A stretch of DNA of 64,000 bases, taken from a virus. This document shows, in pieces, positions 5,937-28,439 of the stretch (position 1 is its first letter; every line of letters starts with the position of its first letter). The position numbers and the translations under genes were made by a program. The stretch lies in IMG/VR virus record IMGVR_UViG_3300037608_000032, positions 11,043 through 75,042 of that record. The stretch is one strand, 5' to 3'. The notes under the pieces were generated by a model. The model was not told the origin of the DNA. It made no database searches and saw only the letters and a list, made by a program, of their open reading frames with translations.

Positions 5937-5938
5937 CC

Positions 5939-9227: not shown

Positions 9228-9265
9228 GAAGGGCGCGCCTAATGGTGGGTGCGCCCTTCATTTTT
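9228..9265 (+). terminator. intrinsic terminator
   Basis: gaagggcgcgcc...gggtgcgcccttc + attttt. Confidence 0.8.
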
Positions 9266-9333
9266 GGGGCGTTTCCGGTTTTGCGGAGAAAAAGCAGGAT
9301 GCGGCTACTGCTGCGAGAAAGGGAGCAACCACG

Positions 9334-11631
9334 ATGCACGAGATAGCCAAGCAGGCCATGGACCCCGCTGGAAAGCCGTTGCGGGCGCTGGTAGAAGAGT
9401 TCTACGGACCCACCGGGCCGCTCGCTGAGATGGGGTGGGAGATTAGATCGCAACAGGTGCAGATGTCTTTGGGCATCGTGGACCTGGTTGAGGCCCGCGC
9501 GAAGTCGGGGCGAGACGAAGAAGGCAACTTCATCTCACGAATTCCTCAATGGGGGTTCGTGGAAGCTCCTTGCGGTACGGGTAAAGGCCTGGCCTACGGT
9601 GTGCCGGGCGTGCTCATGGCGCTGAGGGCCAAGGTGGTCTTCAACGCGGCCGTGGCCAGGGCGAAGAAGGCGGGGACGCGAGTCCCGACTGAGCCCCCGA
9701 AGCTCCTGGTCTCCACGGCGAACATCGCGCTGCAGGAGCAGCTCGTCAAGAAGGACTTTCCTGCGTTGGCGAGGATGCTCGGGATCGAGGACGTGTTGAA
9801 GGTCGTACTTCTCAAGTCCCGACAGAACTACCTTTGCCGATACAAGATCCGGGCGCTCGGTGGGGAGCTCATCGCCGACGAAGAGATCGCGAAGCTCCTT
9901 CGGTGGTCTCGCCTTCCCGAGTGCTCCGGGGACAAGGAAGACCTGACCTGGGACTCTGGATGGCGATGGCAGGAGATGGCCGCTGGGTCGGACGAATGCA
10001 CCGGGGACGCCTGCGCTCACTTCACCGAGAAGGACGAGCCCGACGCGCCGAAGCTCTGTTTCTGGCGACGGGCGATCCGGGGCTACCTGACGGCTCATGT
10101 CGTCGTCACGAACCACCATTATCTGTGCGTGGCCGGGAAGCTCCAGACGTGCCTGCTGGCCGTGGACGAGTCGCATGACCTGGAGGACTGCCTTCGGTCT
10201 ACGGCGACGGGTCAGGTCACGCCGTTCTCAGGCAAGACGCTGGCGGGCAGGGTCCGGGTAGCGGGCCTGTCCGAGGACGAAGCCAAGGCAGCGGTAGACC
10301 GGCCGGTGAAGTGGCTCATGGACCGCGCTGCGGAATGGGTGGACGCCCAGCAGATTCCGGGCCAGCCGGCCCAGGACATGCTCAAGATGGTGCCGGGCTG
10401 GCTCGGAGCTGACCAGCCGGAAGCCGAGCGGTACGCCAACGGGCTGGAAGACCTCCTCGGAGATGTCGCCAAGGCCTGCTTCGCCTTCGGGTGCTCTCAG
10501 TTCCATCCGCGCGTGATGAAGCCTCCGAAGTTCGACGATTCTGAGGTATCGGACAAGGGCGGCAAGCTCGCGAAGACATGGGAGCAGCTCCTGGCGCTCT
10601 CCGAGCGATACCGCGCCGTCATCAACGCGGAGCCCTGCACGGAATGGCCGGGGTGCGATGATCCGTGGGCGTTCTGGTTCGAGCAAGTACGGGGCAAGAC
10701 CGGAGAAATCAGAGTCAACGCCAAGATGTCACCGGCGGACGTGTCTTGGGCGACGTCGGACATGGCAGCGAAGTACCCGCTGGCCGTGTTCACGACTGCA
10801 ACGATGCCGGACTACGAGCCCCAGCGGATCGCGCTTGGATTCGGGACCCGGACCGACGACGAAGGCAAGAAGATCGGCGCACCTGTTCCGACTTTTGAGA
10901 CCAGACTCCCATCCCCGTTTCCGCTCGCCGAGCAGGGCGTCTTGGTTGTGCCTCAAGGGCCGGAGCCGAATGACGTCGCATGGCCGGAGTGGGCGACCCG
11001 GCAGGTAGTCGAGACCGTCAAGCTGGCCGGCGGTGGGGTGCTCGTATTGGCGTCCTCGATGCGTCAGATGAATGCCTATGCCACGGCGCTTCGGAACGCA
11101 GCGTCAGGCCAGCCGTGGGACGTGCGGGTTCAGGGCGAGTCAGGCCGGGCGGAATTGCGGAACTGGTTCCGAGACGACCGAGACGGGGTGCTCGTAGCCA
11201 CGCGGTCCTTCTTCCAGGGCCTGGATGTCCAGGGGGACTCGTGCAGGTGCGTCGTGATTGACCGCGTGCCGTTCGCACGTCCGGATGACCCGATGGAGGA
11301 AGCTGTGGGGAAGCTCCTGGTGAGCCGGGCGCTCGACAACGGGCTGGACTCACCGTCGGCCTACACTTTGAGGTCCATCCCGCAAGCGGCGATGGTGCTG
11401 GCACAAGGGGCGGGTAGGCTGATCCGAAGCCAGACAGACCGCGGCGTAGTGGTCCTGCTCGACAACCGGGTCTTGAAGTTCGGGATCGGCTGGCAGACCC
11501 TGAAAGCCGCGCTACCCCCTTTCCCGATGTCCCGAGACCTTCGAGACGTCGCTAACCAGCTCGCCGGCAGACCGCTGGCGGGTGTTGCCCAGGCCCCACG
11601 GGGTAGGGTGTTGAGACGAGGTGCAGCTTGA
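9334..11631 (+). CDS. DinG/YoaA-family Fe-S helicase
   Basis: RSQQ Q-motif, EAPCGTGK, KSRQNYLC and further Cys, TNHHY, DESH, QGLDVQG, IDRVPF, QGAGRLIRS. Confidence 0.92.
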   Translation: MHEIAKQAMDPAGKPLRALVEEFYGPTGPLAEMGWEIRSQQVQMSLGIVDLVEARAKSGRDEEGNFISRIPQWGFVEAPCGTGKGLAYGVPGVLMALRAKVVFNAAVARAKKAGTRVPTEPPKLLVSTANIALQEQLVKKDFPALARMLGIEDVLKVVLLKSRQNYLCRYKIRALGGELIADEEIAKLLRWSRLPECSGDKEDLTWDSGWRWQEMAAGSDECTGDACAHFTEKDEPDAPKLCFWRRAIRGYLTAHVVVTNHHYLCVAGKLQTCLLAVDESHDLEDCLRSTATGQVTPFSGKTLAGRVRVAGLSEDEAKAAVDRPVKWLMDRAAEWVDAQQIPGQPAQDMLKMVPGWLGADQPEAERYANGLEDLLGDVAKACFAFGCSQFHPRVMKPPKFDDSEVSDKGGKLAKTWEQLLALSERYRAVINAEPCTEWPGCDDPWAFWFEQVRGKTGEIRVNAKMSPADVSWATSDMAAKYPLAVFTTATMPDYEPQRIALGFGTRTDDEGKKIGAPVPTFETRLPSPFPLAEQGVLVVPQGPEPNDVAWPEWATRQVVETVKLAGGGVLVLASSMRQMNAYATALRNAASGQPWDVRVQGESGRAELRNWFRDDRDGVLVATRSFFQGLDVQGDSCRCVVIDRVPFARPDDPMEEAVGKLLVSRALDNGLDSPSAYTLRSIPQAAMVLAQGAGRLIRSQTDRGVVVLLDNRVLKFGIGWQTLKAALPPFPMSRDLRDVANQLAGRPLAGVAQAPRGRVLRRGAA

Positions 11632-11924: not shown

Positions 11925-12606
11925 CCCTCGGTACCTCGACAAGGCCACGGACGCCGAATGGCCGACGCGCATGCCACCTTCCGTCTTGGGGGACTGGCAG
12001 GCCTTGACGAAGTGGCTGGCAGGGGTGTCTCCCGAGTACCGGGCCCGCGTCGTGTCCCTCTGCATCGAGCTGGATCTGGAGGCCGGGCGGGTGGCCTACC
12101 GGGACGCCATGGCGGCCGGAGAGCGGTTCAAGGCCGACCTGATCAAGCGCAACGGGCCGGCCGTGGTGGCCAGCGCCAAGGTCCTGTCGGCCTCGGTCGG
12201 TCGGGCCATGGACGCGCTGACGACGTGGCGGGCGGTGGGCTTGGCGGCGGTCCGGGCGACGGAACAGGCCCGGCAAGACCTGGAGGTCTTCAGGTGGGTC
12301 CGGGCGTCGTTCGTGAGAGTTGCTCGCACATGGAGCGATGTATCTGCGGCGAAGGGGGAGGGGATGACGAGGGACGACACGCCTGCGGGTGTGGCCAAGG
12401 CCCGTCGGGAGTTCGAGGACGAACAGCGCCGGAAGCGCGGGGCTGGCGCGAAGGATGACGATGTGCTCGTGAGCACAGCGCCGGTGAAGGACGCCTACAT
12501 TGCCGAAGAGACGGCCAACCAGGCGAAGCGAGACCGGGCAGACGCCGAAGACCGGGCGAAGGCTACTACGAAGTCCACGCCAAAGGGCGGACTGTTCGGA
12601 GGTTGA
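11917..12606 (+). CDS. hypothetical protein
   Basis: coupled to neighbours; ends GGLFGG. Confidence 0.6.
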   Translation: MPDPRYLDKATDAEWPTRMPPSVLGDWQALTKWLAGVSPEYRARVVSLCIELDLEAGRVAYRDAMAAGERFKADLIKRNGPAVVASAKVLSASVGRAMDALTTWRAVGLAAVRATEQARQDLEVFRWVRASFVRVARTWSDVSAAKGEGMTRDDTPAGVAKARREFEDEQRRKRGAGAKDDDVLVSTAPVKDAYIAEETANQAKRDRADAEDRAKATTKSTPKGGLFGG

Positions 12607-13061
12607 CCGTGCTTCACCTGACTTGCTGGGGGCCGAAGGGCCTGAGATATCTAGGACATGGACGTGCCTTGACCATCATGGCCCTGCCCCGCCAGTGGGA
12701 GGTTGGTGACGGCTCGGTGACGGTGCTTGTCCCTTCCGGCGATGTGATCCGCATGATGCGGGCAGCGCTGGACGCGCGCAAGAACCCGCTCTTCGCTGGA
12801 CGCGAGCCCTTGAACCGCTATCAGGCGGTCTACGAGGCTGGGCTTCAAGGTGTGCTGGACGCGGGGCAGCTCGCACCCGGAAAACTGATGGCCCGGACAG
12901 GGCTGCACAGGTTCCCGGTCGCTGATGGAGACTCCCTGATGTGCGCGTGTCAACCGGGGGAAGAGTGCCACCGTCAGTGGGCCGCTCGGTTCTTGATGCG
13001 TGCCGGTTGGCGGGTTTCGTTGGACGGACAGGAGTTGACTTCATGTGCAAGCAACTTGTGA
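12603..13061 (+). CDS. DUF488/DUF4326-like protein
   Basis: LMCACQPGEECHR motif. Confidence 0.5.
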   Translation: MTVLHLTCWGPKGLRYLGHGRALTIMALPRQWEVGDGSVTVLVPSGDVIRMMRAALDARKNPLFAGREPLNRYQAVYEAGLQGVLDAGQLAPGKLMARTGLHRFPVADGDSLMCACQPGEECHRQWAARFLMRAGWRVSLDGQELTSCASNL

Positions 13062-13126
13062 GACTTCCGGTGTTCGTGGCTTTCGGGGTGTGCCTGCTGA
13101 TGGTCGCTTGGTGGAGAACGAGGTGA
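13043..13126 (+). CDS. 27-aa membrane peptide
   Basis: AGGAG RBS, MCKQLVRLPVFVAFGVCLLMVAWWRTR, stop overlaps the methylase GTG. Confidence 0.45.
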   Translation: MCKQLVRLPVFVAFGVCLLMVAWWRTR

Positions 13127-14601
13127 GAGACATCGTGGCGGTGGACCTGTTCGCGGGAGGCGGGGGTGCTTCGGAGGGGATGCGCAGGGCTGGGGGGAAC
13201 GTCGTGATCGCGGTCGACCATGACCCGGCTTCGATCTTGATGCACACGGCGAACCATCCAGAAACGATCCACTTTGAGAAGTCGGTCTTTGAGGTTTCGC
13301 CGAATGTCGTAGGCCGGAAGGTGGACCTGCTCTGGGCATCGCCGGACTGCACGCATTTTCCCAGAGCGAAGGGCGGCAAGCCTCGAAAGAAGGAGATTCG
13401 GGATCTCGCATGGGTCGTTGTCGAGTGGGCGCAAGCCGTCCGACCGGACGTAATTTGCATGGAAAATGTGCAGGAATTCCTGACGTGGGGCCCCCTGGAC
13501 GAAGAGGGCCAGCCCATCAAAAAGCAGGCAGGCGAGACGTTTCAGGTCTTCGTGGCTCGGCTTCGGTTGCTCGGGTATCGCGTAGACTGGCGCGTCCTGT
13601 GCGCGGCTGACTACGGAGCCCCCACTTCGAGACGACGGCTCTTTCTGGTTGCTCGGGGCGATGGAGAGCCCGTGGTCTGGCCGGAGCCGACGCACGGTAA
13701 GGGACGCGAGTCCTACCGGACGGCTGCGGAGTGCATTGACTGGTCTTTGCTGTGCCCCTCGATATTCGAGCGCAAGAAGCCGCTGGCTGAGGCGACACAA
13801 CGCCGCATCGCCGAAGGGGTGCGACGGTACGTCCTGGAGGCGGCTCACCCGTTCCTGGTACGGTACAATTCTGAGCATCCTGGACAACGACCGCGCGTGG
13901 AGTCGGTAGACGACGTATTCCCGACGGTGACGACCGAGAACCGGTTCGGACTGGTCATACCTTCCCTGAACCATCACCGGGGGAAGTCGGTGGGCAGAAA
14001 GATCGATGCACCTGCACCGACTATTACCGCGTCGTTCGGTGGGCACCTGGGGCTTGTGTCGGCGTTCCTGGCGAAGCACTACGGCGGACCGAACGGGTAT
14101 CAGAATCGGGGTCTCGCAGTAGACGAGCCTCTCGGTACGGTGACGGCCGTTGACCATCATGGCCTCGTCGCAGTCTTCCTCGACAAGCTCCACGGGTCTG
14201 CACTGGCAGGCCAACCCATCGACATTCCAGCACTGACGGTGACGACTGGCGGTGGACGTGGTGGTGGTCATGCTGCGTTGGTCGCGGTGTTCCTGACGAA
14301 GTTCTACGGGCAGGGCTCGCAGGCTCAATGCGTAGGGGCGCCGCTCGATACCATCGTCTCGAAGGACCGCTTCGGGCTCGTGTTCGTGACGCTGGACGGT
14401 GAGTCCTACGTCCTGGCTGACATCGGCATGCGGATGCTCCAGCCCCGCGAGTTGGCCCGTGCTCAAGGGTTCCAGGATTCCTACATTCTGACCGGGACGA
14501 AGGCTCAACAGGTAGCCAGGATCGGGAACTCGGTGCCGCCCGCTGTGGTGGTTGCCGTGGTTCGTGCCCAATTCGGGAGACGGACGAAGAAGGGGACGTA
14601 G
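13123..14601 (+). CDS. C5-cytosine DNA methyltransferase
   Basis: DLFAGGGG, WASPDC, MENV, RRRLF, AQGF, IGNSV. Confidence 0.93.
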   Translation: MRDIVAVDLFAGGGGASEGMRRAGGNVVIAVDHDPASILMHTANHPETIHFEKSVFEVSPNVVGRKVDLLWASPDCTHFPRAKGGKPRKKEIRDLAWVVVEWAQAVRPDVICMENVQEFLTWGPLDEEGQPIKKQAGETFQVFVARLRLLGYRVDWRVLCAADYGAPTSRRRLFLVARGDGEPVVWPEPTHGKGRESYRTAAECIDWSLLCPSIFERKKPLAEATQRRIAEGVRRYVLEAAHPFLVRYNSEHPGQRPRVESVDDVFPTVTTENRFGLVIPSLNHHRGKSVGRKIDAPAPTITASFGGHLGLVSAFLAKHYGGPNGYQNRGLAVDEPLGTVTAVDHHGLVAVFLDKLHGSALAGQPIDIPALTVTTGGGRGGGHAALVAVFLTKFYGQGSQAQCVGAPLDTIVSKDRFGLVFVTLDGESYVLADIGMRMLQPRELARAQGFQDSYILTGTKAQQVARIGNSVPPAVVVAVVRAQFGRRTKKGT

Positions 14602-14639
14602 GGGCTACTACGTCAGCGAACCTTCACCAAGGGAAGCTG

Positions 14640-14840
14640 ATGGGACAAGGAGCGATTGCCGCGTTGTTGTTGCTGGGCATGGAACCGACAGAAGCCGAGA
14701 TGTTCCATGCCCTCGGGGACAAGCAGGAGACTTTCCTGAACGGCTGGACCATCCGAAGGTGCATGGACTGCGGGAAGCCTGTTGCAGGTGGTCCTACTCG
14801 ATGCGTTCTCTGTGCTGACATTGCTGGGGGTGAGGGGTGA
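14640..14840 (+). CDS. small Zn-finger protein
   Basis: CMDCG...CVLC; stop overlaps next start. Confidence 0.55.
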   Translation: MGQGAIAALLLLGMEPTEAEMFHALGDKQETFLNGWTIRRCMDCGKPVAGGPTRCVLCADIAGGEG

Positions 14841-15343
14841 AAGCTCTCACGCTCTGGCCTGAGTGGCTGTTCGCTATCCTGTACCTCGGGAAGCGGATCG
14901 AGAACAGGCCTCGGTCTCCGAAGTGGTACGGGCTTCAACCGGGAGACTGGTTCGCCCTGCACGCGGGGGTCAACAGGCCGACGCTTCAGCGGATCTCCGA
15001 CGTCGGGGACATGGCGCTGAGGGCCGGAGTGCGAGGGATGACCTTCAAGGCCGACGGGAGTATCAAGTACGAGGGGCAGGTGCTCTCGCGTGAGACGTGC
15101 CCCTTGGGCGTCATCCCGGCGATGGCCCGTCTCGGTTCTGCGTGCCTCGGGTTCGCTCGCCCATGGGGCGTCGAAGACCAGTGGCAGTGGTCGCTTGACG
15201 AGGTGCGGGTGCTCCCGGAGCCGGTCTCATGCAAGGGCCATCAAGGCGGGTGGTTCGTGCCTGATGAAGTAGAGGCTCGCATCCGCAAGCAACTTCCGAG
15301 CCTGCCAGGGCTCCACGGCGAGCAAGGGGGCTTCTTCGGGTAG
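14837..15343 (+). CDS. ASCH-domain protein
   Basis: MKALTLWPEW...GKRIENR, ALHAG, PVSCKGHQGGW. Confidence 0.85.
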   Translation: MKALTLWPEWLFAILYLGKRIENRPRSPKWYGLQPGDWFALHAGVNRPTLQRISDVGDMALRAGVRGMTFKADGSIKYEGQVLSRETCPLGVIPAMARLGSACLGFARPWGVEDQWQWSLDEVRVLPEPVSCKGHQGGWFVPDEVEARIRKQLPSLPGLHGEQGGFFG

Positions 15344-15359
15344 GTACGCACCGCCACCC

Positions 15360-15388
15360 GTGAAAAGTCCTTGCAGGTGTGGTATCTT
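15360..15388 (+). promoter_or_regulatory. sigma70-like promoter with extended -10
   Basis: GTGAAA-N17-TATCTT with TGn before -10. Confidence 0.45.
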
Positions 15389-15441
15389 TTCGGAGCAGGG
15401 ACGAAAGACGGTACGAAAGTACGAGCCCCCGAAGGATCAGG

Positions 15442-16215
15442 ATGACCGAGATCGAACCACAATCGAAGCAACTCGCGAAAAGAGGCGGTGAAACCTCCAA
15501 CGCGCATCGGGCCTTCCTTTTGTGGCTCATGCAGGACCCTGGAAAGAAAGGGGCACGGACGAATACCGCGACCGCCAAGGCAGTAAAGAAGACCGAAGGA
15601 GCAGTTAGAAAGTGGCGTATCGCGTTCGAGTGGGACGAACGGGCGCGGGTTCTTGGGCTCGGTGCTGATGCGATGGCCGCGCGGGTCTATGCCGAGAAGT
15701 ACCCTGGCAAGGGGCCGGTGGAAGTCTCGCGGATAATCCACTTGATGAGCGTGCAATTCGTGAGGGAGGACGGGACGGTGCCGGAACCTGTGCCGCAACC
15801 TCCACCCGAGCCAGCGATACCGCTTGAACGGCAACGAGACGCCAAGGCAGAAGACGCGCGGAACGTCGCGAAACGACGGATGACCCTGATTCTGGACGCC
15901 GCAGAAGGTACGCTGGCCAAGGCGCTCCAAGACGGCAAGGCCAGGGTCAACATCGCGGACCTGGCCATCGTTCAGAAGCTTCGGCGTGACCTACAAGACG
16001 GACCGACCGCAGCCCAGATCAAGGACCCGCTGGCGACGTCGGTTCGAGTCGAGGAAGCCGTGAAGCGTGGAGCTGACTGGAACGAGGCTCTACAGGAAGA
16101 CCTGGAGGAGATGGGGTTGATACTCGGGATTCTCCGGACTTCTACCGAGGTATCGAACGTCCTACCCTTTCCTGGCGGCCGGCCGGTGCTGGAGAAGGTG
16201 GCAAGCGGGGAGTAG
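15442..16215 (+). CDS. HTH protein, probable terminase small subunit
   Basis: ETxxAxxAF...RT...A......VRKW...EWDERA pattern seen in phage TerS-like proteins. Confidence 0.55.
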   Translation: MTEIEPQSKQLAKRGGETSNAHRAFLLWLMQDPGKKGARTNTATAKAVKKTEGAVRKWRIAFEWDERARVLGLGADAMAARVYAEKYPGKGPVEVSRIIHLMSVQFVREDGTVPEPVPQPPPEPAIPLERQRDAKAEDARNVAKRRMTLILDAAEGTLAKALQDGKARVNIADLAIVQKLRRDLQDGPTAAQIKDPLATSVRVEEAVKRGADWNEALQEDLEEMGLILGILRTSTEVSNVLPFPGGRPVLEKVASGE

Positions 16216-16254
16216 GGGCTACTACTTCGGTGAACCCAACCCCAGGAGTGGAGC

Positions 16255-16527
16255 ATGAGAACCACAGAACGGGATAGAAATCTATTCGGCGCGGCGTTCC
16301 TCGATGACGTCATTGACGTCATTGAGTACATCGCCGACAACTTCGACCCGGGCGAAGTGTTCGAGCCGGAGACCCTCAAGGAGTGGGTCCGTGATACCTT
16401 TTCTCCTGACGAGGTCTTCGGCGGGCGCAAGGTGGATGATTGGGTCCGCGACAGCCGCAACCCCGATGACGTGTTTTCTACGTCTCAGCTTGAGGAATGG
16501 GCTGAGGCCGACGGCTACACGAAGTAG
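16255..16527 (+). CDS. acidic hypothetical protein with three internal repeats
   Basis: PxEVF......EW repeated three times; GGAG RBS. Confidence 0.65.
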   Translation: MRTTERDRNLFGAAFLDDVIDVIEYIADNFDPGEVFEPETLKEWVRDTFSPDEVFGGRKVDDWVRDSRNPDDVFSTSQLEEWAEADGYTK

Positions 16528-16573
16528 CTTGCAGGCGTTACCACTTATTCCACCTTCGACTCTGGAGGCCTTC

Positions 16574-17200
16574 ATGGGCCAGGCACGATGGGATCTCCTG
16601 AACGCCCTTGCTTACCAGCTTGGAGCGGTCCGCTACCTCGAAATAGGCGTCCAGTCTGGCAACTGCTTCTCACGAGTGGAGTGCCCCGAGAAGATCGGGG
16701 TTGACCCAGCGGGCGGGTGCGCGACCGTCAGGGCTACGTCAGACGCCTACTTCAAGAGCTTGCCTCCGGGGTTCACCTTCGATCTCGTCTTCGTGGACGG
16801 GCTCCATCACCGGGAGCAGGTCTGCCGAGACATCGTCAATGCCTGGGAGCACCTGACGCCGGGCGGGGCCATCCTGGTTCACGACTGCGACCCGCCGACG
16901 GAGCATTCTGGTAGGCGGGGCCTGTGCGGGGGCATCTGGTGCGGGGACGTGTGGCGCGGGTGGATGGACGCGAGACACCAACTCGGGCCCGAAGCCTGGA
17001 TGGGCGTTGTCGAGACGGACCTCGGATGCGGGCTCGTCTTGCCCGGTGGTGCCGTCAGGTCGTCGCCGGTGCCGTGGTCCAAGGAAGAAACCGACCGGGC
17101 CGGGTGGGATTTCTTCGTGGCGCATCGCCGGGAGTGGCTGAACCTCGTCTCGGTGGATGAATTCAGATGGCTCGTGTCGAGACTCGCGAGGATTCGCTGA
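16574..17200 (+). CDS. class I SAM methyltransferase (Methyltransf_24-like)
   Basis: YLEIGVQSG, FDLVFVDGLH, LTPGGAILVHD. Confidence 0.85.
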   Translation: MGQARWDLLNALAYQLGAVRYLEIGVQSGNCFSRVECPEKIGVDPAGGCATVRATSDAYFKSLPPGFTFDLVFVDGLHHREQVCRDIVNAWEHLTPGGAILVHDCDPPTEHSGRRGLCGGIWCGDVWRGWMDARHQLGPEAWMGVVETDLGCGLVLPGGAVRSSPVPWSKEETDRAGWDFFVAHRREWLNLVSVDEFRWLVSRLARIR

Positions 17201-17727
17201 TGCATGTCGAGATCCTGGACTTTCTACGTCGTGCCCGCGACGAAGCCGAAGTACCAGCGTCCCTCGCGGGTCTGTCGGTTGTCGAGTTCGGGAGCTACAT
17301 CATCAACGGCTCACCGCGAGAAGTCTTTACAGGTGCGGGGACTTATATAGGGGTGGACTGGCGGGCCGGGCCAGGGGTGGACGTGGTCTCGCTGGCTCAC
17401 GACGTCGCGGTTGACAGGGCGGACATCGTCCTGTGCTGCCAGGTCTTCGAGCATGATCCGCACTGGGAGCGGACCGTCAGGAAGGCGTGCGAGATGATAC
17501 GAGCGGGAGGCTGGCTGTTCTTCACATGGGCCGGGCCTGGGTATCAGGAACACGAGTTGGCGACGGCCCCGTCTGTCGATGGGGGGAGTCGATACTACCG
17601 GAACCTGCCCACGGAGGACGTGGTGGAAGGGGTCCTCAAGGTTCTACCCGACGCCTTGGTCGTCGCGGGATACCAACGGGGCACGCTGGATGCGTGCTTG
17701 TGGGCGTGGTGGCGGCCGGAGTTCTGA
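17200..17727 (+). CDS. class I SAM methyltransferase
   Basis: VVEFGS, YIGVD, CQVFEHDP, GGWLFFT; TGATG coupling. Confidence 0.8.
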   Translation: MHVEILDFLRRARDEAEVPASLAGLSVVEFGSYIINGSPREVFTGAGTYIGVDWRAGPGVDVVSLAHDVAVDRADIVLCCQVFEHDPHWERTVRKACEMIRAGGWLFFTWAGPGYQEHELATAPSVDGGSRYYRNLPTEDVVEGVLKVLPDALVVAGYQRGTLDACLWAWWRPEF

Positions 17728-17776
17728 TCTCTCCGGTGATGTCCCGTTATACTGGCGGATGAAAGGAGGGTGTTGA

Positions 17777-18379
17777 ATGCCCCGTGCGAAGAAGAAGACC
17801 GACCCCGTCAAGGAAGCCCTTGCTCAAGCCGCGCCTGTTTGGCGGCTGGCGAAGATTGCCGAGCTACATCAGGACCCGACGAACGCCAGGAAGCACGGGG
17901 ACAGGAACCGTGAAGTAGTCCGGGCTTCATTGGAGACCTTCGGGCAGGTCGAGAACCTCGTAGTCGAGCGGGGCACCGGAAAGGTGCTCGGTGGCAACTG
18001 CCGGCTTGACGAGTTGATCGCCCTCGGCCGTGACGAGGTGATGATCGCCGAAGTGGATGTTCACGGACCGGCGGCGACGAAGCTGGCACTGGTCCTGAAT
18101 CGGTCTGCGGAGCTGGCCGAGTGGGACCCCGTTGGGCTGGCCGACGTGGTGCGGGAGCTTCAAGGGAGCTTCGACGGGTTGGCGGACATCGGGTGGGATC
18201 CGAAGGAGCTTGAGAAGATCGTCGGCAGGCAGGAGGCCCCGATAGTCACTGGGAACGCTCCGGTAACGGACCTTGAGCAGCGGTTCGACATCGTCGTGGA
18301 GTGCGGCGATTACAAGGAGCAGGAGGCTCTACTGGCTCGACTACTGACGGAAGGTGTGAAATGCCGACCGATCATGTAG
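17777..18379 (+). CDS. ParB/Srx-like N-terminal domain protein
   Basis: PTNARKH, SLETFGQ, VLGGNCR, LNRSAELAEWD; AGGAGG RBS. Confidence 0.85.
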   Translation: MPRAKKKTDPVKEALAQAAPVWRLAKIAELHQDPTNARKHGDRNREVVRASLETFGQVENLVVERGTGKVLGGNCRLDELIALGRDEVMIAEVDVHGPAATKLALVLNRSAELAEWDPVGLADVVRELQGSFDGLADIGWDPKELEKIVGRQEAPIVTGNAPVTDLEQRFDIVVECGDYKEQEALLARLLTEGVKCRPIM

Positions 18380-19449
18380 TCCTTGAAGTGCAGGTGGAGA
18401 GAACGCCCCGCGTGCTCCGGGTTGAATCCATGTTCGACGTTCCGGCTTCGGAGAAGTCCCGACTTGAACTCGACATCGGGATGCCGATTGAAGATCGGCC
18501 GTGGTCGGTTGGGCTGATCGTCGGGCCGTCAGGTGCGGGAAAGTCCACTGTAGGTGCAAGGATCTTTCAGCGACCGGTCAGTCTGGAGTGGTCAGGCTCG
18601 AAGGCGTTGGTGGATTCCTTCGACCAGCGGTTCACGATCCAGGACATCGCTGAAGCGCTCGCGTCGGTTGGCCTGTCTTCGATCCCTTCCTGGTTGCGGC
18701 CTTTCCGGGTGCTTTCGACGGGTGAGCAGTTCCGAGCCATGATGGCGCGGACGATTCTGGAGACCGATGGCCTGGTAGTCGTGGACGAGTTCACGTCGGT
18801 TGTTGACCGGCAAGTCGCACAGGTGGCGAGTCATGCCGTGCAGAAGTACGTTCGTAAAACCGGGCGGCAGTTCGTGGCTATCGGGTGTCACTACGACGTG
18901 ATCGACTGGCTCCAACCAGACTGGATCTACGAGCCCCATGTGAATCGCTTCAACTGGAGGTCACTTCAACGACACCCAGAATTGCAGCTCGAAATCCATA
19001 AAGTTCACGGGTCCGACTACTGGCCCTTGTTTGGGCGTTATCACTATATGAGCGGCGAATTGCACAAGGCCGCCCGGTGTTTCGTGTTGACCCTGGACGG
19101 TCAACCTGTGGCGTTCAACGCCTACATGCACCAGGCCCATGCCCAGACGAAGAACATAAAGTTCGGGCATCGGTTGGTAGTGCTGCCCGATTATCAAGGG
19201 CTTGGCATTGGACCAAGGTTTGATGAGTGGCTGGGAGAATACCTGTATGCACGCGGGTTTCGATATCACAATCACACAGCTAATCCGGCCATGATTAGAT
19301 ATTATTCAAAGTCCGTCCGGTGGCGGGCATTGAATCAAACACTGGGAATAACCGGGACAAGTGCCAACAAATCGTTGAAAATAAAAGCAAAGCTAATTCG
19401 TAGGCTGTCTCTTCGTTCGTTCGCATATTCGCCGAAGGTAACACAATGA
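18361..19449 (+). CDS. ABC-type ATPase fused to GNAT acyltransferase
   Basis: GPSGAGKS, LSTGEQFR, VVDEFTSVVDR, GCHYD; GNAT motif RLVVLPDYQGLGIG. Confidence 0.9.
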   Translation: MPTDHVVLEVQVERTPRVLRVESMFDVPASEKSRLELDIGMPIEDRPWSVGLIVGPSGAGKSTVGARIFQRPVSLEWSGSKALVDSFDQRFTIQDIAEALASVGLSSIPSWLRPFRVLSTGEQFRAMMARTILETDGLVVVDEFTSVVDRQVAQVASHAVQKYVRKTGRQFVAIGCHYDVIDWLQPDWIYEPHVNRFNWRSLQRHPELQLEIHKVHGSDYWPLFGRYHYMSGELHKAARCFVLTLDGQPVAFNAYMHQAHAQTKNIKFGHRLVVLPDYQGLGIGPRFDEWLGEYLYARGFRYHNHTANPAMIRYYSKSVRWRALNQTLGITGTSANKSLKIKAKLIRRLSLRSFAYSPKVTQ

Positions 19450-19793
19450 AAACCTTTGTATCAGGCAAGGTCCACGATGTCAGAGTCACCGACAAGCATA
19501 TTCGATATGTCGGGTCCATCTCGCTATCCAGAAACCTGATTGCAGCGGCGGGCATGGAGCCCTACGAGCAGGTCCATGTCATCAACCTCAACAACGGCAA
19601 CCGGTGGGTGACGTATATCCTGCCCGTGGACGAAGACGGCGTGTTCACCTTGAACGGCGGCGGGGCTCGCCTCGGTGAAATCGGGGATGTCTGCGTGCTG
19701 ATTACCTATGCCGCGTCCGAGCACTTCGACGGAGCGAAGGTGGTGTTCTGCACGGCGAAGAACGAGATCGACCATGAAACCACCTATCCTTGA
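19446..19793 (+). CDS. panD: aspartate 1-decarboxylase (pyruvoyl-dependent)
   Basis: GKVH, YVG|SI self-cleavage site, NGNRWVTY, LNGGGARL, GD. Confidence 0.92.
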   Translation: MKTFVSGKVHDVRVTDKHIRYVGSISLSRNLIAAAGMEPYEQVHVINLNNGNRWVTYILPVDEDGVFTLNGGGARLGEIGDVCVLITYAASEHFDGAKVVFCTAKNEIDHETTYP

Positions 19794-20469
19794 GATTGGC
19801 CGCTATCTGGTACCCGCCTATGCCGGGATGGTGCTCGCGGAGCAGGGTTTCCAGGTAGAAAAGTGGTTGTACCTGCAAGACCCTATTCAGGGGCTTCTTC
19901 ACGGAGACGAGCTTTGGCGGTGGGTCAACGCGGGGAAGGTGCTCGTCAACCACGTAGCGGACGAAGTGCTAAACCTGTCGGTAGGAGCCTTCTCCGGCGT
20001 TGTCGAGAATCTCTCGGAGTCGTGGTGGTTGGCGCATGGCGTGGACCCTGATGAACAGGCGCGACGGCTTGACGTGCCCTGGGTCTCGTTTCGGCCACAA
20101 GTAGGTGAGCGGTCCTTCGACGTTATCGCTCAGGCGCAGGCGTGGGCCGGTGTAGCTCCCTGGGTGCCTTTCTACATTGGAGACACCTTGGGGGGCCTGT
20201 GGGTCGCCTACAAGCTCGTGTCCATGCTGGCGCTCGGGAAGACAGGCCGCGTGGTCATCCGTCATGCCGATTGCTTGGCGAAGATGGTGGAAGGGGAGTT
20301 GACCCTTCCGAGGCCGTCGGGTCCAGTGCCATGGGATATCGAGGTCTATCGACTCGGGGAGCAAGGGGCCGAAGTCGAGTATCGGGGTAACATCGTAAAG
20401 GAGCCTCTACGGGATGACGCTTGGCGTCGGGAGCACCTGACAACAGTCAGCGGGCGGATTGTCGTCTGA
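19774..20469 (+). CDS. compact family III (CaiB/BaiF) CoA-transferase
   Basis: ILEIGRYLVPAYAGMVLAEQG, DP, NAGK, VVENL, FDVIAQA, GDTLGG. Confidence 0.75.
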   Translation: MKPPILEIGRYLVPAYAGMVLAEQGFQVEKWLYLQDPIQGLLHGDELWRWVNAGKVLVNHVADEVLNLSVGAFSGVVENLSESWWLAHGVDPDEQARRLDVPWVSFRPQVGERSFDVIAQAQAWAGVAPWVPFYIGDTLGGLWVAYKLVSMLALGKTGRVVIRHADCLAKMVEGELTLPRPSGPVPWDIEVYRLGEQGAEVEYRGNIVKEPLRDDAWRREHLTTVSGRIVV

Positions 20470-21706
20470 CGCTTTCGTTCTGGGCGATCATGGTGCCCAG
20501 GGGGCCGGTCTCTTCCTCGATACGTGCTCGGAGTTCTGGTGAGATCCGCCAGAGCGACAACTTGCCCGCACATGCAACGGGCTTCTTGAGTGCCACGGCG
20601 TAGGTAACGGGAAGACATACGGGACCTTCTGCCCACTCGCGATCCGTCGTAACTTGTTCAACGGGGACGCCTTCGCCGAGAATAACAACACCGATGATAG
20701 CGGACGTGGGTAGTAAGCCTATGCCGTCGGTGAGCTTCGGGTCGGCGTCTACGTCGAAAGACGCGGACGCATGGATGAAGACCCAGCGCGAGCCCTTGAT
20801 GCCGAGTCCTGTGGATCGATTCTCCCAGGTCTTGCGACCCGAGACGAGCAACGAAGCCCAGGGCTGCTTGACAGACAGGGCACGAAGGTCTCCAGCCCAT
20901 CCGTCGTCCGCCTCGGTGGGCATGTCCAACCCAACGACGGCCTTGATGGACTCCTTCCACTTCACGAGGGGGTCGTCACGGAGGCGCAAGTACAGCGCCT
21001 TCACCCGGTCGTCAGACTGCGAGGCTTCCAGGCGACGGAGGCCCTCAAGGTGGGTGGCGTCGGCGAAGCCGTTGTGCTTCAGCCGTGCTGCACCCTGGTT
21101 CAGTTTCCCGATCCAGATCGAATCGGTCACGAAGGGGGACAAGATGCTTACAAGTGCGAGCACCTTTTCCTCTTGGACTTCGAGCAACGGCTCGCAGGAC
21201 ACCGATGTCCTGAATCCCTGGGAGTAGGCGTATTCGAGGGCCATCAAGCGCTCCTCGAAGCTGGGAGCGCCGGGCTCCCACCACTTGAGGATGACCGACG
21301 AAGACGACCCGATCGTGAAGCGGAACATGATTTTGGACTTGTACTGGGCAAGCTCGGTGCAGACCCGAGCTATCACGTCAAGGTGGGGCTTGGAGACTAC
21401 CAGGACTTCGTTCCCGGCCTCAAGGAGGTTCTTCAACCCCTGGATAGTCCAGTTGGCCAGCGCCGGGGAGATATCGTGGGTGGTGGGATACATGACCGTG
21501 CCCTGGTAGCGGCGCTTTGTTTTTGCCATTCCCGGGGTGCTTGGATGTTCGTTGGACCACTGACCGGGCTCACATCGCCGGAAGCGGTAGGCCATGGCTG
21601 ATCCATAGCAATAGCAACAAGAATTTGAGCAGCCCCGCACGGTATTTACCGAGTTTGAGGCCCATTCTCTGGTTCCGGAAACAGCGATAGGTCTGGTTTC
21701 TTCCAT
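20447..21706 (-). CDS. radical SAM protein (SPL/DUF5131-like) fused to C-terminal ASCH domain
   Basis: GCSNSCCYCY, WEPGAPS..ERL, SCEPLL; ALSVKQPWASLLVSGRKTWENR, FIHAS. Confidence 0.85.
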   Translation of the reverse strand: MEETRPIAVSGTREWASNSVNTVRGCSNSCCYCYGSAMAYRFRRCEPGQWSNEHPSTPGMAKTKRRYQGTVMYPTTHDISPALANWTIQGLKNLLEAGNEVLVVSKPHLDVIARVCTELAQYKSKIMFRFTIGSSSSVILKWWEPGAPSFEERLMALEYAYSQGFRTSVSCEPLLEVQEEKVLALVSILSPFVTDSIWIGKLNQGAARLKHNGFADATHLEGLRRLEASQSDDRVKALYLRLRDDPLVKWKESIKAVVGLDMPTEADDGWAGDLRALSVKQPWASLLVSGRKTWENRSTGLGIKGSRWVFIHASASFDVDADPKLTDGIGLLPTSAIIGVVILGEGVPVEQVTTDREWAEGPVCLPVTYAVALKKPVACAGKLSLWRISPELRARIEEETGPLGTMIAQNESVRRQSAR

Positions 21707-22248
21707 CCGCTTTTTCTTCCTTGTCCTACGTTATGACCGTTTATGTATTTTCGTGGTCTTTGATGCTCATCGTATTTTAGAAATGTAGATCCGCATCCAC
21801 AGGCGCACGGAACGATCTCGTTGATCTTGGACTTCTTTCCTTTTCTCCAATGGCCGCCGTCGATGTACTTTCGTAGTCTTCCGGACTCATCGAACTTAAA
21901 AAAAGTAGCTCCGCAGCCACAAGCACATGAGACGAGTTCGTTAGGTTCGTCTGGAAGTTGACGCACCTTGCCGCTGTGTCGATGGTGAACCTTGTGCGCC
22001 CATATGCTGCTGACAATCTCGATGTTCTCTGGCCGGTTATCCGTTCGGTCTTCGTTCTTGTGATGCACAAGTTCGGTGGGGAGAATCTTTCTACCAAGGA
22101 TCTGCTCTGCAACGATTCTGTGCTCGTAGGCGTACCCGTTGATGTGGGCGAGGTGATGGCCGTCTTCGACTTTGACCAGCACGTATCCGTTGCTTCCGAC
22201 AAGACGTCCGCCTTTCCAGTTCGGGTTCTTCTCTCTTTTGAGGCCCAT
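21646..22248 (-). CDS. HNH endonuclease with two CACGCG repeats
   Basis: NPNWKGG, YEHRIVAE, VHHKNEDRTDNRPENI; AT-richer DNA; AAGGAG RBS. Confidence 0.88.
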   Translation of the reverse strand: MGLKREKNPNWKGGRLVGSNGYVLVKVEDGHHLAHINGYAYEHRIVAEQILGRKILPTELVHHKNEDRTDNRPENIEIVSSIWAHKVHHRHSGKVRQLPDEPNELVSCACGCGATFFKFDESGRLRKYIDGGHWRKGKKSKINEIVPCACGCGSTFLKYDEHQRPRKYINGHNVGQGRKSGWKKPDLSLFPEPENGPQTR

Positions 22249-22324
22249 GGTTGACTCCTTGGTTGATGTGCATCTATGTGATAGCAGCATCTACCTATGG
22301 AATCAACAATAAAGTTGATGCGTG

Positions 22325-22522
22325 TTACTCGTTCCTCTTGAGTCTGACCTCAGCCAGAATCTCGTCCGCCTCGACACGGGCCAGGCGCTTGGCCTCGCGC
22401 ACCGTGTTGGCGACGTGGAAGATGGAGAGGGGCCAGAAGACCTGGCCGTCTTTAGACATGGTGCCGGCCATCGCCATGGGGCGGCCGGTGGTGGTGCGTT
22501 CGACTTTGTAGACGTACTTCAT
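22325..22522 (-). CDS. hypothetical protein
   Basis: AAGGAG RBS, 65 aa. Confidence 0.6.
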   Translation of the reverse strand: MKYVYKVERTTTGRPMAMAGTMSKDGQVFWPLSIFHVANTVREAKRLARVEADEILAEVRLKRNE

Positions 22523-27541: not shown

Positions 27542-28425
27542 ATCAGCGTTGGCGAGAACGACGCGAGAGCTACAGGCCAGCACAAGAGCCTATCGACCCG
27601 AGCAAGTACGGTGTCGAGTTGATCCGAGAACAAGACGCGAAGGCCTACGTTATTCGGCATCATTACTCGGGGACCTACCCGGCGGCGCGTCTTCGGGTCG
27701 GTCTGTTTAGGTCTTTACCGTTCAACGCTCCCGCTTTGGTAGGCGTTGCCGTCTTCTCGGTCCCGATGGTAGGGGCCGTCATCTCGAAGTGGCTCGGAGT
27801 GGAGCCCGCCAAGGGAGTAGAGCTCGGGAGATTCGTGCTGAATGACGACGTGGAGGGGAACGGAGAAACGTGGTTTTTGGCTCGTGCTTTTCGTTTGCTG
27901 GCCCGTGAACTCCAGGAGGTTGAAGGTGTGGTCAGCATGTCAGACCCTGTTCAGCGAAGGTCGGCCTTTGGCGACGTGGTGACTCCTGGACATGTTGGGA
28001 CGATCTACCAAGCGCTGAATGGAAGATTCGTCGGGAGGTCGAAACCGAAGAAGATGGTTCTTGACCAGGAGGGAAGAGCCCTGTCGGAACGTGCCTTGTC
28101 CAAGATACGAAATGACGAATGCGGGGCTCGATACGCCTACGATCAGCTTCTGGACTCTGGAGCTCCAAGACGGGAATTCGGGGAGACCGGGGAGCACTAC
28201 ATAGCCAGAGCGCTACGAGACGGTCCATTCGTCAGGGTCGCTCATCCCGGGAACATAGTCTATGTCTGGGCGACTGAACGGGCGAGCAAGATGACCGTTC
28301 AAGGCCTTCGGGACCCCATGAAGTACCTCAAGGCTCGAGATGCTGTAGTGTGCATGGAGCGAGAGGTCATCGCCAGGGTAGATTCACGCACCTGCAAGCA
28401 ACTTGGACTCTTTCCGGCGATGTAG
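27538..28425 (+). CDS. Mom-family adenine-modification enzyme (GNAT fold)
   Basis: HHYSG, LVGVAVF, VELGRFVL, NGETWFLA, SMSDP, GHVGTIYQALN. Confidence 0.85.
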   Translation: MNQRWRERRESYRPAQEPIDPSKYGVELIREQDAKAYVIRHHYSGTYPAARLRVGLFRSLPFNAPALVGVAVFSVPMVGAVISKWLGVEPAKGVELGRFVLNDDVEGNGETWFLARAFRLLARELQEVEGVVSMSDPVQRRSAFGDVVTPGHVGTIYQALNGRFVGRSKPKKMVLDQEGRALSERALSKIRNDECGARYAYDQLLDSGAPRREFGETGEHYIARALRDGPFVRVAHPGNIVYVWATERASKMTVQGLRDPMKYLKARDAVVCMEREVIARVDSRTCKQLGLFPAM

Positions 28426-28439
28426 GGTATGCTCCCAGC

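Follow-up and report, generated by a model that had tools for sequence, protein, structure and literature searches.

A conserved phage cassette of ParB-like, ABC-GNAT, PanD and half-size CoA-transferase-like genes, possibly for beta-alanyl modification of DNA

Four co-oriented genes with overlapping ends are located at positions 17777-20469 of the window, the 64,000-nt stretch analysed here, which corresponds to positions 11,043-75,042 of the IMG/VR record IMGVR_UViG_3300037608_000032 (68% complete). According to the window ORFs and family searches they encode, in order, a ParB-like protein, an ABC-GNAT fusion of a soluble ABC-ATPase with a small GNAT, PanD and a half-size family III CoA-transferase-like protein. 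That the cassette is more than a chance arrangement is confirmed, because phage Jace and dozens of viral contigs carry the genes in the identical order. Together the genes may enable the phage to synthesise an acyl donor of its own, beta-alanyl-CoA, and with it to modify the phage DNA post-replicatively, which is the reading we prefer and consider plausible, if somewhat short of probable. The analysis was computational and covered the structure of the genes, their assignment to families and folds, the catalytic residues, how far the cassette is conserved, co-variation of GNAT and transferase, and the occurrence of the transferase family in an omega-amino-acid context. The features of the cassette are as follows.

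17777..18379, + strand, ParB/Srx-like protein, 200 aa (phrog_620, profile against structures)
18361..18975, + strand, ABC-ATPase half of ABC-GNAT, residues 1-205 (PF00005, motifs, AF2 fold)
18976..19449, + strand, GNAT half of ABC-GNAT, residues 206-362 (PF00583, PF13508, fold match)
19446..19793, + strand, PanD-type pyruvoyl aspartate 1-decarboxylase, 115 aa (PF02261, residue alignment)
19774..20469, + strand, half-size family III CoA-transferase-like protein, 231 aa, Asp137 (homologues with PF02515, fold)

The ParB and ABC-GNAT genes overlap by 19 nt (ABC-GNAT ATG at 18361, ParB stop TAG at 18377-18379), ABC-GNAT and PanD share the sequence ATGA (PanD ATG at 19446, ABC-GNAT stop TGA at 19447-19449), and PanD and the transferase gene overlap by 20 nt (transferase ATG at 19774, PanD stop TGA at 19791-19793), just as the original prediction, made from the sequence, had described (18361<18379, ATGA 19446-49, 19774<19793). 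Its assignment of the four genes to families agrees in every case with Pfam, PHROG, profile or fold matches, and the motifs that it quoted, QGLGIG in the GNAT and FDVIAQA and GDTLGG in the transferase-like protein, are all present in the window translations.

The ATG of the ParB ORF is preceded by AAGGAGG, a strong Shine-Dalgarno sequence, and the protein has an N-terminal domain of the ParB nucleotide-binding type and a small conserved C-terminal domain. The single sequence gave no Pfam match at E<=0.01 in the Pfam scan, but it matches phrog_620 with an E-value of 1.8e-25 in the PHROG search, and a profile of 40 sequences matches Noc/Spo0J/ParB structures (E 1.8e-17 to 2e-13), indicating homology to the ParB/Srx N-terminal domain.

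The fusion protein matches phrog_11143 with an E-value of 6e-104 in the PHROG search and has at least 7974 relatives at E<=0.001 among 8000 scored candidates, as well as matches in 61 GenBank phage records. The ABC half reaches 28.4 bits with PF00005 (Pfam cut-off 25) and contains a Walker A motif GPSGAGKST, a signature LSTGEQFR, a Walker B motif VVVDEF and an H-loop CHYD, with the motif residues invariant across 40 homologues. In the AF2 model (pLDDT 90.8) this half, residues 1 to ~205, matches ABC nucleotide-binding domains with Z about 14 and a Foldseek prob of 1.00. The GNAT half scores above the cut-offs of PF00583 (27.8 bits, cut-off 20.7) and PF13508 (28.5 bits, cut-off 27), has QGLGIG, of the Q/R-x-x-G-x-G/A pattern, as its CoA pyrophosphate loop at residues 279-284, and resembles small GNATs over residues 208-362 of the same model (Z 13-14.6). 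The GC content is 0.50 in the GNAT half versus 0.59 in the ABC half.

The closest ABC structures are transporter subunits and not DNA-binding ABC proteins, and the closest solved GNATs are protein or small-molecule N-acetyltransferases (such as RimI, Naa50 and IAA acetyltransferase), both of which count against a DNA target. The same matches, together with the lack of an evident DNA-binding domain within ABC-GNAT itself, would suit a pathway with the same donor and a different acceptor, which might be a protein amine of host or phage, an RNA, or a small amine such as a polyamine; a passage in PMC7824862 mentions acetylation of the host's RNA polymerase by phage GNATs, Rac among them. We hold such an acceptor to be somewhat unlikely, since a ParB homologue was detected upstream of ABC-GNAT in 62 of 76 loci, ABC-GNAT genes in loci without the transferase are commonly followed directly by terminase-sized genes (identified as terS and TerL in the two such loci scanned), and the cassette of the window stands in a block with three methyltransferases, one of them a C5 DNA methylase. 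ParB proteins are also DNA clamps, and one is described in PMC13229309 as activating a phage DNA dioxygenase on dsDNA. The neighbouring genes are listed below.

13045-14601, + strand, C5-MTase (Pfam)
14837..15343, + strand, stand-alone ASCH-like protein, 168 aa, possible accessory (phrog_3193, E 7.6e-15)
16574-17200, + strand, SAM MTase (Pfam)
17167-17727, + strand, SAM MTase (Pfam)
20447..21706, - strand, radical-SAM (CX3CX2C) and ASCH fusion, possible accessory (weak Pfam Radical_SAM and ASCH matches; phrog_3193, phrog_13321)

The stand-alone ASCH-like protein is encoded in the same + strand block as the three DNA/SAM methyltransferases, and the radical-SAM/ASCH gene is convergent to the cassette and overlaps the end of the transferase gene by 23 nt. 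ASCH-like genes also adjoin the cassette in Jace and in loci L027, L032, L041, L119 and L132.

The original prediction had been made to depend on panD and the CaiB-like gene co-occurring with ABC-GNAT elsewhere, and this they do, in Jace, in IMG/VR and in bacterial loci. ABC-GNAT adjoins the short transferase in 37 of 39 IMG/VR transferase loci, the other two ending at a contig edge, while ParB was detected in 27 and PanD in 31 of the 39; in 30 of these 31 PanD is flanked by ABC-GNAT and the transferase, the order being different in L010. The cultured temperate Rhodococcus phage Jace has the identical four genes in identical order (gp85-88), and is the only GenBank phage with both PanD and short transferase genes. 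ABC-GNAT is also found at 7 of the 21 transferase loci in bacterial genomes, in Actinomycetota, Alphaproteobacteria, Planctomycetota and a Thermoanaerobaculia MAG, and the gene order of the cassette is kept across four bacterial phyla.

The transferase is absent from the fetched flank in 66 of the best 80 IMG/VR ABC-GNAT loci; most ABC-GNAT loci thus do without donor-synthesis genes, which implies a common host acyl-CoA as the default donor. Since the textbook role of PanD is in CoA synthesis, PanD and the transferase might accordingly be auxiliary metabolic genes that boost CoA/acetyl-CoA, with beta-alanine feeding host pantothenate/CoA synthesis, the transferase regenerating acetyl-CoA, and ABC-GNAT merely acetylating its target. 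This we regard as unlikely. Neither panB nor panC was found in the source record (68% complete) or in 5 further records, of which 4 reach a completeness of 91% or more, in line with the absence first noted for the window; furthermore, the transferase family pairs elsewhere with GABA-forming enzymes, and the GNAT halves linked to it form a subtype that would be unexpected if the donor had stayed acetyl-CoA (both described below).

PanD of the window matches PF02261 with an E-value of 3e-28 and 98.4 bits (cut-off 25) over profile positions 4-114 of 115, and TIGR00223 with 79.3 bits, under the equivalog cut-off of 106 (NCBIfam), indicating a divergent member. The translation contains YVGS and NRWVTY, and the self-cleavage site lies between Gly23 and Ser24. 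Residues K8, H10, Y21, G23-S24, R53, T56, Y57 and N70 line up with those of PanD from M. tuberculosis (2c45), so the cleavage site and the catalytic residues are retained as had been claimed, and among 29 distinct cassette PanDs each of these active-site residues is conserved in 26-29. In E. coli numbering we take the catalytic and substrate residues to be Lys9, His11, Tyr22, Arg54, Thr57, Tyr58 and Asn72.

PanD is dispensable to the module, because three records with a completeness of 91% or more have ABC-GNAT and the transferase but lack PanD altogether, and it has been gained or lost several times on the transferase tree. In such phages beta-alanine would therefore have to be host-supplied, or the acid differs, which counts against the beta-alanyl pathway. 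Both observations, as well as the chromosomal relatives of the transferase that sit with GABA-forming enzymes, would fit a transferase that activates another carboxylic acid (GABA or another host acid), with PanD as an optional add-on in a separate role. That version appears improbable to us given the position of PanD between ABC-GNAT and the transferase in nearly all PanD-bearing loci, the overlap of its ends with both neighbours in the window, and the conservation of its aspartate-specific residues.

The transferase of the window on its own had no match in Pfam (E<=0.01), PHROG or NCBIfam, and a precomputed PF02515 match is present in 49 of the 71 homologues listed. Its AlphaFold model (pLDDT 82.6) has only family III CoA-transferases as top Foldseek matches (E 2.4e-8, prob 1.00), E-values against family III structures ranging from 2e-8 to 1e-5 with query-normalised TM of about 0.5-0.63, and its profile matches formyl-CoA transferase with an E-value of 1.3e-4. 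Asp137 aligns to Asp175 of Rv3272 (match E 0.077), which together with the fold bears out the proposal of a CaiB-like protein with the catalytic Asp in GDTLGG. In family III enzymes it is on this aspartate that the acyl-anhydride and CoA-thioester intermediates are formed. The members of the short family are 206-269 aa long, with one 195-aa partial, and do not have the full two-domain chain of family III; they score at least 120 bits versus at most 75 bits for canonical family III members, indicating a discrete, small subfamily. As the protein has 231 aa versus the usual 350-430 or so, is without most of the part that forms the interlocked dimer, and has no Pfam match of its own, its activity is only predicted. 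The half length, and the long branch of the window transferase on the family tree (1.34), might also be expected of a catalytically dead protein serving as a CoA-binding or structural subunit, or of extra genes that are hitch-hiking cargo outside the module, but this is very improbable in view of 32 columns, the catalytic Asp137 and the GDT...G motif among them, that do not vary in 25 homologues, and of the gene order kept across phyla.

Nine actinomycete chromosomal loci have the transferase gene but no ABC-GNAT, and in 8 of them it is flanked by a glutamate-decarboxylase-like gene on one side and an aminobutyraldehyde dehydrogenase gene on the other. The former scores 347-363 bits with TIGR01788 in the three scanned, just under the equivalog cut-off of 380, and the latter 621.6 bits with NF010000 (cut-off 615). 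Both enzymes make GABA, the next homologue of beta-alanine, and a second, non-homologous amino-acid decarboxylase thus also partners the short transferase. The family context points to omega-amino acids, and not acetate, as substrates. The transferases in GABA context form a separate clade on the transferase tree, which, like the sub-cut-off scores of the glutamate-decarboxylase-like genes, counts against the preferred pathway.

The GNAT half, and not the ABC half, co-varies with the presence of the transferase, and the linked GNATs are a distinct subtype. The mean identity of the GNAT half is 0.59 among transferase-linked proteins and 0.385 between linked and unlinked ones, compared with 0.56 and 0.50 for the ABC half; linkage changes 3 times on the GNAT tree versus 7 on the ABC tree, and position 288 of ABC-GNAT is acidic in 25 of 28 linked proteins and in 0 of 54 unlinked ones. 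The co-variation could partly reflect shared phage ancestry rather than donor specificity. Together with the GABA context of the transferase, this GNAT-specific co-variation lends independent support to the logic of the donor pathway.

From these data we infer every substrate and the DNA target, the beta-alanyl transfer included. In the preferred pathway PanD would convert L-aspartate to beta-alanine, onto which the transferase, via its conserved Asp, would transfer CoA from host acetyl- or succinyl-CoA, giving beta-alanyl-CoA. The GNAT half might then place the beta-alanyl group on an exocyclic amine of a DNA base, with the ABC ATPase providing ATP-driven DNA engagement and the ParB-like protein aiding action on double-stranded DNA, as ParB does with some phage thymine dioxygenases. 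The resulting base would be cationic and aminoacylated (+71.037 Da), or an isomer of the same mass if it rearranges like the glycyl-dA of phage Mu, and could protect against host restriction. Acyl groups on N6-adenine are described as unstable in the Mom paper (PMC13219725), which counts against such a product. A still more tentative joint reading is that phages of at least four bacterial phyla put beta-alanine on their DNA, as the first base hypermodification with an acyl-CoA donor from a dedicated phage pathway (PanD and a minimal omega-amino-acid CoA-transferase), yielding the cationic base or a Mom-like rearranged isomer. A new omega-amino-acid enzyme family (beta-alanine in phages, GABA in actinomycetes) would then be represented by the half-size transferases, and GNAT subtype and neighbouring genes would make the acyl group programmable in the far larger ParB/ABC-GNAT family.

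The ParB/ABC-GNAT pair is among the commonest unexplained gene pairs beside phage packaging genes, and its chemistry, first predicted in 2013, is still a prediction. Here the cassette's own donor-synthesis genes name a concrete and unusual acyl group, with a defined mass and an aspartate/beta-alanine label route, and the cultured temperate BSL-1 actinophage Jace makes the hypothesis directly testable. If it is true, DNA hypermodification and anti-restriction chemistry would gain a new class, the CoA-transferases a new minimal family, and amine-functionalised DNA a possible enzymatic route.

The claim that no system like this had been described was overstated, since Iyer, Zhang, Burroughs and Aravind (NAR 2013) had already predicted acylation of a DNA base by the ParB/ABC-GNAT core, as related in a passage of a 2021 paper (PMC7824862). 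The window resembles that predicted module in having a ParB gene followed by an ABC-GNAT fusion in a late or packaging-proximal genome position, and differs in the PanD and short transferase genes behind the fusion and in the distinct GNAT subtype. In the literature searched, to which the 2013 paper and its supplement did not belong, we found neither an experimental test of acylation by ParB/ABC-GNAT nor a description of the PanD and short transferase extension of this widespread core, which appears to be undescribed. TmcA/NAT10, in which an ATPase joined to a GNAT uses acyl-CoA and ATP for N4 acetylation of RNA cytidine, had been brought in for comparison, and the likeness holds as an analogy (ATPase plus GNAT) and not as homology, since the ATPase is helicase-like and not of the ABC class, the substrate RNA and the donor acetyl-CoA. 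Thymidine hypermodification in phages M6, ViI and others, reportedly a post-replicative, amino-acid-derived and often cationic base decoration made by dedicated phage enzymes, is similar in these respects to the proposed pathway. It starts from 5-hydroxymethyl-dU and uses kinases, aGPT-Pplase transferases and PLP enzymes, and no such 5-hydroxymethyl-dU-type genes were present among the window genes scanned. The transferase shares the Rossmann-type large-domain fold and the aligned catalytic Asp with family III enzymes (Frc, YfdW, CaiB, Rv3272, SUGCT) and differs from them in length. The reaction proposed for it is performed by the beta-alanine CoA-transferase of Anaerotignum (Clostridium) propionicum, for which PMC10266731 gives beta-alanine and propionyl-CoA as substrates and beta-alanyl-CoA as product. 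This enzyme is catabolic, feeding beta-alanyl-CoA ammonia lyase, and is likened by reaction and not by sequence. It presumably falls into another family of CoA-transferases. A tRNA-dependent donor such as that of Mom would not serve for beta-alanine, which is not charged onto tRNA, and a CoA route would therefore be needed. The GNAT-fold protein Mom of phage Mu, as portrayed in PMC13219725, puts glycine onto the exocyclic N6 of dA in dsDNA post-replicatively, giving 6-NcmdA and restriction evasion, and is thus, by description, alike in superfamily and in amino-acyl transfer, whereas its donor is Gly-tRNA rather than a CoA thioester and it acts with neither an ATPase nor a ParB partner.

The cassette is made up of four genes on the + strand. 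The coordinates and overlapping gene ends of the original prediction, which read the region as a candidate operon for beta-alanyl modification of DNA, were all borne out on recheck, and the start codon chosen for the last gene is backed by homologue N-termini in an alignment.

17777–18379, + strand, ParB-like gene with a strong Shine-Dalgarno sequence
from 18361, + strand, ABC-GNAT fusion gene, starting 19 nt ahead of the ParB stop
from 19446, + strand, PanD gene, with an ATGA overlap
19774–20469, + strand, short CoA-transferase-like gene, starting 20 nt before the PanD stop

In a promoter and terminator scan of 12500–22500 the cassette interior did not rise above shuffled expectation: no promoter-like site turned up, and the 8 terminator-like sites compare with an expected 7.3. 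One weak terminator-like site lies at 19009–19026 within the GNAT part. The absence of internal signals is compatible with a single transcription unit, though no proof of one.

The ParB-like protein has no Pfam match as a single sequence; it matches phrog_620 (E 1.8e-25), and a profile of 40 homologues encoded upstream of ABC-GNAT genes matched solved structures of Noc, Spo0J and ParB with E values from 1.8e-17 to 2e-13. The ABC-GNAT matches phrog_11143 ("unknown function", E 6e-104) and exceeds the cut-offs of Pfam ABC_tran and of two GNAT models. Its AlphaFold model (pLDDT 90.8), compared with solved structures also by Foldseek, has two cleanly separate parts, residues 1 to ~205 resembling ABC nucleotide-binding domains and residues 208–362 resembling small GNATs, both with Z ~13–14.6. 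A predicted complex of ABC-GNAT and ParB, run without controls, scored 0.00 and speaks neither for nor against binding. The PanD is a clear Pfam member (E 3e-28) and a divergent one, since its NCBIfam equivalog score of 79.3 falls below the cut-off of 106. The active-site residues first noticed in the sequence hold up in an alignment with M. tuberculosis PanD and in one of 29 cassette PanDs, which keep the Gly-Ser site, Lys, His, two Tyr, Arg, Thr and also an Asn, and the protein is very probably a true aspartate decarboxylase.

The last protein alone gives no family match. Its 71 homologues are 195–269 aa long, many of them with PF02515, and a profile of the family reaches formyl-CoA transferase at E 1.3e-4. 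The Asp predicted to be catalytic in this CaiB-like protein could be placed in the profile as the invariant Asp137, aligned with Asp175 of Rv3272, and only family III CoA-transferases are found at the top of the structure-match list of its AlphaFold model (pLDDT 82.6). An exhaustive profile search returned only 35 representatives at E<=1e-30 among 1.84 billion, with a wide score gap to ordinary CoA-transferases of 350–800 aa, and the short transferase therefore constitutes a small, discrete, half-size subfamily. A dedicated search for longer fused forms found none, which is weak evidence. The exhaustive search also returned P0193, a protein of 404 aa in which an ABC-ATPase half (1–180) is joined directly to a short transferase (181–404), without GNAT and without PanD; the join may have arisen naturally, by fusion or deletion, or it may be an artefact of assembly.

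The source record is linear, 75,042 bp long and 68% complete according to CheckV, and the 64 kb covered by the window have a GC content of ~63%. The record contains a replication block with primase-helicase, helicases and a PD-(D/E)XK nuclease, and a packaging/head block. Its TerL has no close relative among GenBank phages (~21% identity at most). The cassette sits in a + strand block that opens with a C5 DNA methyltransferase gene, after which come an ASCH-like gene and two genes for SAM methyltransferases.

13045–14601, + strand, C5 DNA methyltransferase gene
14837–15343, + strand, second, stand-alone ASCH-like gene, upstream of the cassette
15379–16215, 278-aa protein without family assignment, within the 13045–17727 run of modification genes
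20447–21706, − strand, radical-SAM (CX3CX2C) and ASCH fusion gene
28350–30158, TerL, packaging/head block
30690–33665, portal, packaging/head block
35259–36233, major head protein, packaging/head block

Ahead of the cassette, the modification genes of 13045–17727 encode a 518-aa C5 cytosine DNA methyltransferase and two SAM methyltransferases, of the Methyltransf_24 and Methyltransf_23 types. The radical-SAM/ASCH gene converges with the cassette, the two overlapping by 23 nt at the cassette end, and its radical-SAM part is weakly similar to Rv2578c and to mobile-pair-B type radical SAM proteins. ASCH-like genes adjoin the cassette also in the cultured phage Jace and in L027, L032, L041, L119 and L132. 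A pathway of the thymidine-hypermodification type was rejected, because no gene of that type is present among the scanned replication, methylase and packaging genes of the window.

Conservation of the cassette is real. Rhodococcus phage Jace, filed under the name Gordonia phage Jace, carries the four genes in the same order, annotated as ParB (gp85), "ATP binding protein" (gp86), "aspartate decarboxylase" (gp87) and "hypothetical protein" (gp88). A transferase-profile scan gave 39 IMG/VR loci, whose neighbours were called by tblastn with the proteins of the window. The ABC-GNAT adjoins the short transferase in 37 of them, the two exceptions (L018 and L040) having the transferase at a contig end where the contig begins. 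PanD is present in 31 of the 39 and lies between ABC-GNAT and transferase in 30 of these 31; in the remaining one, the 4203-bp contig L010, the order is PanD, transferase, ABC-GNAT, with the ABC-GNAT downstream of both, and the contig is probably circularly permuted or repeat-joined. The ABC-GNAT is followed directly by the transferase, with no gene between, in six loci (L022, L024, L025, L033, L037, L038), and ParB was detected in 27 of the 39. Many loci are near-duplicates, with 45 distinct transferase rows out of 56. Bacteria and archaea, at one genome per species, gave 21 loci with the short transferase. The ABC-GNAT is present in seven of these (Streptomyces, Nonomuraea, Alsobacter, Hyphomicrobium, two Gemmataceae and a Thermoanaerobaculia MAG), nine are actinomycete chromosomal loci with neither ABC-GNAT nor PanD, and of the rest three are truncated immediately ahead of PanD and two are partial loci. 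The original prediction would lead one to expect panD and the CaiB-like gene beside ABC-GNAT elsewhere, and they are so found in Jace, in IMG/VR loci and in bacterial genomes.

Two prophages show other arrangements. In that of Alsobacter metallidurans (L128) PanD (1061–1399) is located ~3 kb upstream of the ABC-GNAT (4544–6693 region) and not between it and the transferase. In that of a Hyphomicrobium MAG (L129), a locus without PanD, the gene inserted between ABC-GNAT and transferase (5010–5981) encodes a LAGLIDADG homing endonuclease and no alternative pathway enzyme.

The ABC-GNAT itself is very common, with 7974 of 8000 scored candidates at E<=0.001 and 61 matching phage records in GenBank, spread over many host genera, of which Jace alone has the short transferase. 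Among the 80 IMG/VR loci that best match the ABC-GNAT of the window, 14 have the transferase (ranks 1–13 and 18) and the other 66 have none inside the fetched flank; in these, genes of terminase size or a small convergent gene come next after the ABC-GNAT, and scanning identified some of them as terS, TerL and ASCH. In L064, which has no transferase nearby, the 857-aa protein after the ABC-GNAT (7042–9615) has homing-endonuclease/LAGLIDADG domains and its gene may be intein-bearing.

In a tree of 86 ABC-GNATs one branch (SH-aLRT 88) sets 54 of the 57 proteins without a nearby transferase (unlinked) on one side, and all 29 with one (linked) on the other, together with the unlinked L052, L059 and L064, whose records are fragmentary (50%, 9% and 12% complete). 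This tree and the transferase tree omit same-contig duplicate loci (L042–L051, L028) as well as identical sequences, and L029, without an intact ABC-GNAT ORF, was dropped. The very long-branched L041 was left out of the discriminating-residue, half-identity, half-tree and position-288 analyses; L052, L059 and L064 were left out of the unlinked group for discriminating residues, identities and position 288 and kept in the half-trees. In the GNAT half, linked proteins have a mean identity of 0.59 to one another and of 0.385 to unlinked ones; in the ABC half the two values are 0.56 and 0.50. The protein of the window has 0.556 identity to linked and 0.391 to unlinked proteins in its GNAT half, and 0.516 and 0.530 in its ABC half. 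Linkage state has to change three times on the GNAT half-tree and seven times on the ABC half-tree, eight of the nine group-discriminating residues are in the GNAT half, and an acidic residue stands at position 288, just past the CoA loop, in 25 of 28 linked proteins and in none of 54 unlinked ones. We read these sequence comparisons as indicating that a GNAT subtype travels with the transferase, with the signal located in the GNAT half, as expected if the transferase makes the donor of the GNAT; alternatively, the same co-variation may reflect common ancestry of the phages that carry the genes. The GNAT half (18976–19449) has a GC content of 0.50 and a GC3 of 0.56, and the ABC half is intermediate (GC 0.59), compared with ~0.63 and ~0.8 in the rest of the phage; the HNH endonuclease gene at 21646–22290 is AT-rich like the GNAT half (GC 0.50). 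This base composition suggests that the GNAT half is a recently swapped-in module.

The nine actinomycete chromosomes place the transferase in a second, independent setting. In eight of them (L118, L121, L122, L123, L124, L126, L131 and L133, from Salininema, actinobacterium OK074, Lentzea, two Actinopolyspora, two Streptomyces and Promicromonospora) the transferase gene is flanked on both sides by same-strand genes, in a conserved three-gene row at ~4500–8300 of each locus. The upstream gene encodes a PLP-dependent decarboxylase that best fits the glutamate decarboxylase model (TIGR01788, 347–363 bits in three scanned copies, just below the cut-off of 380), and the downstream gene an aldehyde dehydrogenase passing the aminobutyraldehyde dehydrogenase model (NF010000, 621.6 bits against 615 in the Lentzea copy). 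Both glutamate decarboxylase and aminobutyraldehyde dehydrogenase yield 4-aminobutyrate, and the row may represent an undescribed GABA-CoA route. The Lentzea locus also has an IDO-like gene, an SAH hydrolase gene and an SAM synthetase gene nearby. In the transferase tree the GAD-linked proteins form a single clade (SH-aLRT 100) amid the phage ones, and no GAD-like or aldehyde-dehydrogenase gene was found in any of the viral loci examined. The family thus twice adjoins a decarboxylase yielding an omega-amino acid, the pyruvoyl PanD and the PLP-dependent GAD-like enzyme being unrelated, and this double association is the strongest argument at hand for beta-alanine as the acid loaded onto CoA in the phages; the transferase probably acts on an omega-amino acid.

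The ParB/ABC-GNAT core is of a known kind, by prediction only: acyl modification of a DNA base by such a core was predicted in 2013, as cited in PMC7824862. The view that no such system had been described accordingly appears to hold for the PanD/short-transferase extension and not for the core. Full-text literature searches did not find the extension, although the 2013 NAR paper with its supplement, and Dataset S10 of PMC13229309, may already list PanD or CoA-transferase genes as neighbours, and the 2026 Jace paper (PMC13313380), with no occurrence of "aspartate decarboxylase" or "ParB", does not mention it.

In the proposed route PanD would convert aspartate to beta-alanine, the transferase would turn this into beta-alanyl-CoA with a host acyl-CoA as CoA donor, and the GNAT, assisted by the ABC ATPase and ParB, would attach the beta-alanyl group to an amine on a base of the phage DNA. 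That the GNAT uses the product of the transferase is slightly favoured. DNA is the likelier acceptor, given the ParB partner, the methyltransferase and ASCH neighbours, the packaging genes downstream and the 2013 prediction, and a dioxygenase partner of another phage ParB requires that ParB for activity on dsDNA, according to PMC13229309. The whole chain, from aspartate over beta-alanyl-CoA to a base of the phage DNA, is tentative, with the odds somewhat against it. Against it stand three phages with records at least 91% complete, in which the other genes are present and PanD is nowhere to be found; the half size of the transferase, a putative enzyme; the closest solved structures to the two halves of the ABC-GNAT, protein or small-molecule acetyltransferases for the GNAT half and transporter subunits for the ABC half, which hint at no nucleic-acid substrate; and the instability ascribed to N-acyl adenines in PMC13219725.

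The cassette turns a long-standing acylation prediction into a specific experiment that is feasible in a cultured phage. To our knowledge no tRNA carries beta-alanine, and a CoA route is therefore the obvious alternative to the donor used by Mom, the DNA-modifying enzyme of phage Mu. Mom, which has a GNAT fold, is a precedent for the proposed chemistry: it places glycine on N6 of dA in dsDNA, and the glycyl group then rearranges on the base (PMC13219725). The amino-acyl donor of Mom is not CoA-based, whereas the route proposed for the cassette would use a CoA thioester, and beta-alanine as the amino acid.
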